A stretch of 9,116 nucleotides of DNA from positions 1-9,116 of the IMG/VR virus record IMGVR_UViG_2698536397_000007; one strand, 5' to 3'. Below, piece by piece: positions 6,976 through 8,032 of this stretch. Source of the stretch: a virus (Duplodnaviria; Heunggongvirae; Uroviricota; Caudoviricetes). The translations under genes were made by a program, and so were the position numbers. Below the pieces are notes generated by a model. It did not search any database, was not told the origin of the DNA, and saw only the letters and a list, made by a program, of their open reading frames with translations. The first letter of the stretch is position 1; every line of letters starts with the position of its first letter.

Positions 6976-8032
6976 ATGGCTAATACTGTAAAAATATCCA
7001 GTTGTGAGCTAATCAACGCTGATTGCCTGGAATTTATCCAGACCTTACCGGAAAACTCTGTCGATCTGATAGTCACAGACCCGCCATACTTTAAAGTGAA
7101 GCCCGAGGGCTGGGATAACCAGTGGACGGGGGATGAGGATTACCTGAAATGGCTGGACCAGTGTCTTGCGCAGTTCTGGCGGGTGCTGAAACCTGCCGGA
7201 AGTCTTTACCTGTTCTGTGGTCATCGCCTGGCGTCTGACATTGAAATCATGATGCGTGAACGCTTCAGTGTGCTGAACCATATTATCTGGGCGAAGCCGT
7301 CCGGACGCTGGAACGGGTGCAACAAGGAAAGCCTGCGGGCGTATTTCCCCGCCACAGAGCGCATTCTGTTCGCGGAACATTATCAGGGCCGTATCGCCCG
7401 AAAGATGCCAGGTATGAGGCGAAGGGCAGGGCACTGAAACAGCATGTGATGGCCCCGCTGATTTCTTACTTTCGTGATGCACGTGCTGCCCTGGGGATAA
7501 CGGCAAAACAGATTGCTGATGCCACAGGAAAGAAAAACATGGTGTCGCACTGGTTCAGTGCCAGCCAGTGGCAGCTACCGGACGAAAGCGATTATCTGAA
7601 ATTACAGGCGCTGTTTGCCCGGGTGGCAGAAGAGAAGCATCAGCGCGGAGAACTGGAAAAGCCACATCACCAACTGGTCAGCACATACAGTGAACTGAAT
7701 CGGCAGTATGCGGAACTGCAGAGTGAATATAAGCATCTGCGGCGGTATTTTGGCGTGACGGCGCAGGTGCCGTACACCGATGTGTGGACGCATAAACCGG
7801 TGCAGTACTATCCCGGGAAACATCCGTGCGAAAAACCAGCAGAAATGCTGCAGCAGATAATCAGCGCGAGCAGTCGTCCGGGTGACCTGGTTGCAGATTT
7901 CTTCATGGGTCGGGTTCGACAGTCAAAGCAGCGATGGCGCTGGGACGTCGTGCAACTGGCGTTGAGCTGGAGACTGAACGTTTTGAGCAGACTGTCAGGG
8001 AAGTTCAGGATTTAGTCAGTCAGAACGGATGA
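6976..8032 (+). pseudogene. Phage DNA methyltransferase (DPPY-type N6-adenine/N4-cytosine family) disrupted by two single-base frameshifts
   Basis: N-terminal part (ATG 6976, frame 1) carries DLIVTDPPYF and stops at TGA 7435-7437. The protein continues in frame 0 (…PYRPKDARYEAKGRALKQ…HPCEKPAEMLQQIISASSRPGDLVADFFMG) and then in frame 2 (SGSTVKAAMALGRRATGVELETERFEQTVREVQDLVSQNG*, TGA 8030-8032). Shift points are near 7386-7390 (G/C run) and 7908-7911 (GGT-CGG where GGT-TCG-GGT would give FMGSGST). Both behave as 1-nt deletions; the second destroys the FxGxG SAM-binding motif. Confidence 0.8.

Follow-up and report, generated by a model that had tools for sequence, protein, structure and literature searches.

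Two single-base deletions split an M.EcoGII-type DNA methyltransferase gene in an Escherichia coli lambdoid prophage

Prophage setting of the methyltransferase locus

The window, by which we mean the entire 9,116-nt stretch of viral DNA analyzed here, spans, by its annotated gene order, the early-right and late-regulatory genes of a lambdoid prophage of E. coli (Table 1). The ParE/RelE toxin (99 aa) and its ParD antitoxin lie within the early region, are intact and are kept in relatives. The second ead/Ea22-like gene, an intact 225-aa ORF in loci L006 and L009, carries a C-to-T substitution that changes CAG to TAG; this stop is common only to the window and L010 (GCA_028247915.1) and is thus younger than the methyltransferase lesions described below. 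The 65-aa ORF was found 5′ of the methyltransferase in all relatives. The hairpin that follows it consists of GCCTTCAG-TCCT-GAAGGC and TTTTTT, and further terminator-like hairpins lie 3′ of the methyltransferase. These positions are consistent with a methyltransferase gene that only Q-modified polymerase would transcribe, upon induction, which agrees with the report that M.EcoGII is silent in lysogens (PMC5778455).

The slot for cargo, which separates the methyltransferase from the SASA/DUF1737 esterase gene (start near 8817), was empty: it contained neither stx nor TerB cargo, and no tRNA genes were found in the window by ARAGORN or Rfam. In close relatives the slot holds tRNA-Ile/Arg/Arg together with stx2b, stx2a or TerB/DUF3927. 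In the window the slot contains duplicated repeats of ~104 nt (82% identical), which may be the trace of a recombination through which the cargo was lost or replaced. The STnc100 sRNA (Rfam RF02076) is present twice in tandem (131 and 183 bits), and each copy ends in a terminator-like hairpin. A single copy lies just 5′ of the esterase gene in L001, L002, L004, L005, L020 and L021, while L010 has two, as in the window.

Table 1 Features of the window, in window coordinates
Feature	Position	Strand	Details
DUF1627, DUF4406, two ead/Ea22 genes, DUF551			Upstream part of window
Second ead/Ea22-like gene	2033-2710	+	C-to-T at 2333, Q101*
ParE/ParD pair	3440-4065	-	
DUF968	4418-5476		
RusA	5477-5842		
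DUF1133 / Q-like late antiterminator gene	5839-6411	+	5′ of methyltransferase
65-aa hypothetical ORF, conserved (WP_000917768.1 type)	6628-6825	+	Annotated in homologous loci
Intrinsic-terminator-like hairpin	6812-6835	+	Between 65-aa ORF and methyltransferase
M.EcoGII-type beta-class DNA adenine methyltransferase pseudogene	6976-8032	+	1057 nt vs. 1059 nt in intact homologues, by alignment
Frame A (position mod 3 = 1) ORF, 153 aa	6976-7437	+	ATG 6976, TGA 7435-7437
Catalytic motif IV, DPPY	7078-7089	+	Frame A
Lesion 1	7386-7388	+	GGG where intact alleles have GGGG (CAG GGG CCG); 1-nt deletion after codon 137
Frame B (mod 3 = 0) segment	7389-7906	+	Native residues 138-311; TRD, motif X, start of motif I
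Lesion 2	7907-7909	+	GGG where intact alleles have GGGG (ATG GGG TCG); 1-nt deletion within SAM-binding FxGxG
Frame C (mod 3 = 2) segment	7910-8032	+	Native residues 313-352 (SGSTVKAAMALGRRATGVELE...SQNG); native TGA 8030-8032
Cargo slot	8033-8816		Empty
Duplicated ~104-nt repeats	8069-8172, 8339-8442		
STnc100 sRNA, two copies	8112-8320, 8382-8590	+	
Terminator-like hairpins ending the STnc100 copies	8290-8309, 8559-8580		

Reading frame of the methyltransferase gene

We aligned the locus to the intact 1059-nt genes of CP55_Sichuan, STEC1585, 2012EL-2448 and FORC_069, and found exactly two gaps, each of 1 nt. The first sets intact CAGGGGCC against CAGGGCC in the window, where CAG GGG CCG has become CAGGGCCG, and the second sets intact ATGGGGTCG against ATGGGTCG. 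Identity to the intact genes was 99.2–99.5% over the whole length (CP55_Sichuan 99.2%; FORC_069 99.5% to the repaired gene), which indicates that the pattern did not arise by chance. Adding one G per site restored a 352-aa ORF that includes FFMGSGST.

As it stands, the sequence distributes the protein over three frames. The frame-A product has 137 native residues, including DPPY, followed by 16 out-of-frame residues (RIARKMPGMRRRAGH...), such that the stop caused by the first lesion leaves DPPY in place while the TRD, motif X and motif I are lost. Frame B is open from 7317 to 8015 but has no native start; a 188-aa call in this frame, beginning MAPLISYF, occurred once, in Logan. The second lesion changes FMGSGST into FMGRVRQ, and frame C carries GSGSTVKAAMALGRR... 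through the native stop with no usable start codon ahead of an internal Met.

The repaired product matched PF01555 (N6_N4_Mtase; E = 6e-44, 151 bits against a cut-off of 26.7) across residues 29–340 and profile positions 1–219 of 221, and showed the motif order of the beta class, with DPPY at residues 35–38, a central TRD and FMGSG at residues 310–314. The native 153-aa fragment is likewise tagged PF01555. In the unrepaired sequence the FxGxG motif is not in frame with DPPY and lies beyond the frame-A stop. Judged from its sequence, the locus belongs to the PF01555 family as a pseudogene and not as a working member, and normal decoding of this allele would yield no active enzyme.

The original prediction had described a methyltransferase spread over three frames by two single-base deletions, with DPPY in frame 1, the middle region in frame 0, the FxGxG region in frame 2, a base missing near 7386–7390 and FMGSGST turned into FMGRVRQ. 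The alignment bears out this description, including its coordinates and frame labels, and shows intact homologues to be single uninterrupted ORFs, unlike the frame structure here. One detail needs correction: a T was proposed to be missing at 7909–7910, and while the site was right, intact alleles have GGGG there, so the missing base is a G of that run. Repair with T or with G gives the same amino acids.

Distribution of the broken allele and origin of the lesions

The exact 153-aa product occurred in NCBI and in Logan, whose assemblies are made independently from SRA runs, on 32 contigs in all, and in 35 blocks of the assembly collection; it has been deposited as a site-specific DNA-methyltransferase (EEQ4552639.1, EHK4636706.1 and others). 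All ten assemblies that were fetched (L006–L015), which have different accession prefixes, had three Gs at both sites (G3/G3), and their methyltransferase regions were 1–3 substitutions from the window. The G3/G3 copies have the bases T7700, C7734, C7901 and T7993 in common, at which the nearest intact alleles differ. Only 5–6 substitutions separate the broken allele from the nearest intact genes, which indicates that inactivation was recent. The closest sequence to the window overall was the draft GCA_028247915.1 (2 mismatches in 8,655 nt, 99.98%), and the best match among complete E. coli genomes was 2012EL-2448 (L004; Stx2b prophage), with 89% covered at 98.7% identity. One substitution, G7410A, is private to the window and absent from the ten other G3/G3 loci; read in the native frame it would be G146R, and in the shifted frame A it changes CCG to CCA without altering the amino acid.

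Exact-match searches with 66-nt and 71-nt queries found neither G3 site in 5,426 complete RefSeq E. coli genomes, and a 40-nt pattern search for the G3 alleles gave no match in GTDB representative genomes or IMG/VR. With no complete genome carrying a G3 site, the allele is rare, and all its known carriers are draft or SRA-derived assemblies. Single-lesion intermediates, namely a 346-aa product with lesion 2 only or a 194-aa C-terminal ORF with lesion 1 only, were not on record, and neither was the exact repaired protein of the intact ancestor.

It is very improbable that both lesions are homopolymer errors of sequencing or assembly in a gene that is in fact intact. Each lesion is the loss of one base from a G homopolymer, a classic class of error, and the absence from complete genomes could be read in the same way, but that absence also fits a rare lineage, given 32 contigs against very many drafts. 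The identical pair in ten assemblies argues against error, as does its recurrence in Logan assemblies built from raw runs, and the linked SNPs common to the G3/G3 copies mark a haplotype. Moreover, the same context at both sites has been read correctly in G4 alleles in thousands of assemblies (a cluster of 4,845 members), so a context-driven artefact cannot explain a haplotype-specific pattern. The window also has another 32 G4/C4 runs, plus 10 that are longer, with no other net indel relative to near-identical relatives: no further net 1-nt indels were present across 5.8 kb at 99.6% identity (2012EL-2448), 2.6 kb at 99.5% (L006) or 8.66 kb at 99.98% (GCA_028247915.1). Sequencing error is effectively excluded by these comparisons, and the lesions appear to be real and inherited.

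Recoding would offer another way to retain function, if ribosomes shifted twice by −1, or if transcription slipped at the G runs, to give a low and tolerable level of a toxic methyltransferase. We consider this the least probable of the readings. At both sites, as read from the sequence, a P-site tRNA-Gly on GGY could re-pair in the −1 position on GGG and restore the native sequence, and over-expression of the intact enzyme is deleterious (PMC5778455). However, an X XXY YYZ slippery heptamer is present at neither site, and the flanks are unchanged from intact alleles, such that no stimulatory element has evolved. Three Gs are far too few for polymerase slippage, and two independent low-efficiency events would be required. 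Homologues are uninterrupted in about 1,900 complete genomes, and breaks in other lineages occur at unrelated, non-slippery places.

We also assessed the frame integrity of the same gene family elsewhere. Megablast searches recovered the gene from Stx2-converting phages and, under the annotation DNA-methyltransferase, from about 2,000 of the 5,426 complete E. coli genomes, with M.EcoGII-type copies in up to 7 places per E. coli genome. Among 60 spread matches from complete genomes, about 54 were full-length, and frame-breaking length changes occurred in 4–5 of these (roughly 8%), leaving more than 90% intact. The three frame-broken copies of the sample that were checked are all ‘frameshifted’ in RefSeq. 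Alleles called ‘frameshifted’ by PGAP were those of EH41 (−1 at gene position 22), GN05476 (−2 at position 512), CEC03102 (−1 at position 683) and FHI_NMBU_10 (L001 3664; −10 at position 588). They belong to the same family and occupy the same position as the window copy, and their lesions are independent, none falling at the window’s two G runs. This suggests that the gene has been lost recurrently in the family, and loss of the methyltransferase gene does not appear unusual. Truncated cluster members were mostly contig-end partials and are of no use as a census of truncation. A literature search for a described frameshifted Stx-prophage methyltransferase found none; an IS629 insertion has been reported in Stx2a phages, in another adenine methyltransferase.

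Upstream of the broken allele, a DUF1133-type Q was found in the window, L008–L011 and L015, a PF03589-type antiterminator in L006, L007, L013 and L014, and a PF06530 Q with a DnaB/IstB replication module in L012. Loci with the broken allele were co-linear from about 6550 onward. Relative to L006, L007, L012, L013 and L014, a mosaic breakpoint lies within 5824–6550, where unrelated Q types replace the module and the broken haplotype stays the same. The occurrence of one broken allele behind three upstream modules indicates that the block survived at least two module exchanges.

Taken as a whole, the comparisons make it very probable that an orphan DNA methyltransferase gene of a lambdoid (Stx-type) prophage, an orthologue of M.EcoGII/M.EcoGI, has become a true pseudogene here and is inherited as such. 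The gene of intact phages directly follows the Q antiterminator, within what would be the late transcription unit, and induction presumably turns it on, such that non-specific adenine methylation would shield progeny DNA from restriction. Replication slippage may have removed one G from each of the two GGGG runs. The first deletion would end translation after the 137 native residues, with loss of the TRD and the SAM-binding motif, and the second, inside FxGxG, was probably neutral if it struck a gene that no longer worked. Vertical inheritance and recombination would then have distributed the broken allele among lambdoid prophages.

Inactivation could instead have been adaptive, if a leaky promiscuous adenine methyltransferase harmed the lysogen, a knocked-out allele were selected, the second frameshift locked it against slippage back from G3 to G4 and recombination spread it among prophages. 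Such a history would fit the slower growth under M.EcoGII over-expression (PMC5778455), the frame-broken copies in the sample of complete genomes, and the position of the broken allele behind at least three Q or replication modules with intact neighboring genes. We nevertheless regard it as unlikely, since most sampled copies are intact, which suggests that the gene is usually kept, and the native gene is reported to be transcriptionally silent in lysogens, so that its cost may be nil. The unrelated nonsense mutation in the ead/Ea22 gene fits generic decay, and the data fit selection and drift alike. Two indels against only about 2–4 haplotype-specific substitutions are somewhat more than neutral decay would lead one to expect, though these counts are low. 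It is highly doubtful that selection favored the allele as a ‘safety-locked’ knockout of a promiscuous and toxic methyltransferase, or that the 153-aa DPPY fragment acts on the other M.EcoGII-type copies present in many E. coli; if true, either would explain how one haplotype persists across several prophage backbones with its neighbors intact.

An inherited pseudogene accords with one of the alternatives in the original prediction, inactivation of the gene, as the same double lesion occurs in independently assembled genomes. The attribution to prophage decay holds for the gene and not for the whole element, because the prophage is mostly intact and decay amounts to the methyltransferase and the gene with the stop at 2333. 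The competing proposal of homopolymer sequencing errors located the sites correctly in homopolymers, both of them G runs, and as an explanation it is essentially refuted by the lineage-specific haplotype. A programmed frameshift had rightly been called unlikely, and the orthology to M.EcoGII had been missed.

For annotation, the locus should be labeled as one orphan methyltransferase pseudogene of the M.EcoGII type, broken by frameshifts, rather than as two or three separate ‘site-specific DNA-methyltransferase’ proteins. Phage particles of this lineage would be without the presumed broad anti-restriction methylation, and their host range could narrow. The haplotype (G3/G3 with the four marker bases) is a handy marker for the stx-less prophage lineage and its recombinants. 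Beyond annotation and lineage marking, the significance is slight.

Comparison with known methyltransferases

M.EcoGII, a beta-class enzyme of 349 aa, is encoded by a prophage in E. coli O104:H4 C227-11 and methylates adenine whatever the surrounding sequence (Murray et al., NAR 2018, PMC5778455). We used as reference the 349-aa methyltransferase at 1474103–1475152 of the C227-11 chromosome, which is the M.EcoGII sequence printed in Table S1 of PMC11551740 except for three OCR glitches. The repaired protein was identical to it at 329 of 349 residues (94%), TRD included, and both have the order DPPY, TRD, FxGxG. Both loci also run from a Q antiterminator through a small ORF and the methyltransferase to a tRNA/cargo slot and a SASA esterase, with tRNA-Ile/Arg/Arg in the slot at C227-11, and the gene order of the window agreed with L020 (C227-11), L004, L005 and L021. 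The level of identity together with the same prophage context indicates that the locus is an orthologue of M.EcoGII/M.EcoGI. The window copy differs in being broken by the two deletions and unable to encode the enzyme, in lacking the tRNA genes at its locus, and in having a protein C-terminus that is three residues longer (..VSQNG), as in the phage 1720a-02 type.

Escherichia phage 1720a-02 has been named as the carrier of a close M.EcoGII relative (PMC5778455), and its methyltransferase (AGR48369.1) was 96% identical to the repaired product. Over the gene, nucleotide identity was 94–96% to 1720a-02 and to the ‘DNA methylase’ of Stx2a, Stx2b and Stx2e (phiP27) converting phages, in which it has the same position as in the window, upstream of the tRNA-stx cassette. 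These phage copies are intact, and tRNA-Ile/Arg/Arg plus stx or another cargo come after them, whereas the window copy is frameshifted and the cargo is absent.

Among structurally solved beta-class enzymes, M.RsrI (1eg2), CcrM (6pbd), M1.MboII (1g60) and 8urk/9c3u matched the core in two blocks, the N-terminal DPPY region and the C-terminal FxGxG region (E = 1e-15 to 1e-24), while the central region of ~150 residues (TRD) of the M.EcoGII family had no sequence match in the PDB. The solved enzymes are sequence-specific, unlike the M.EcoGII family. What the window holds is ordinary, a recent inherited pseudogene of a well-characterized enzyme family.
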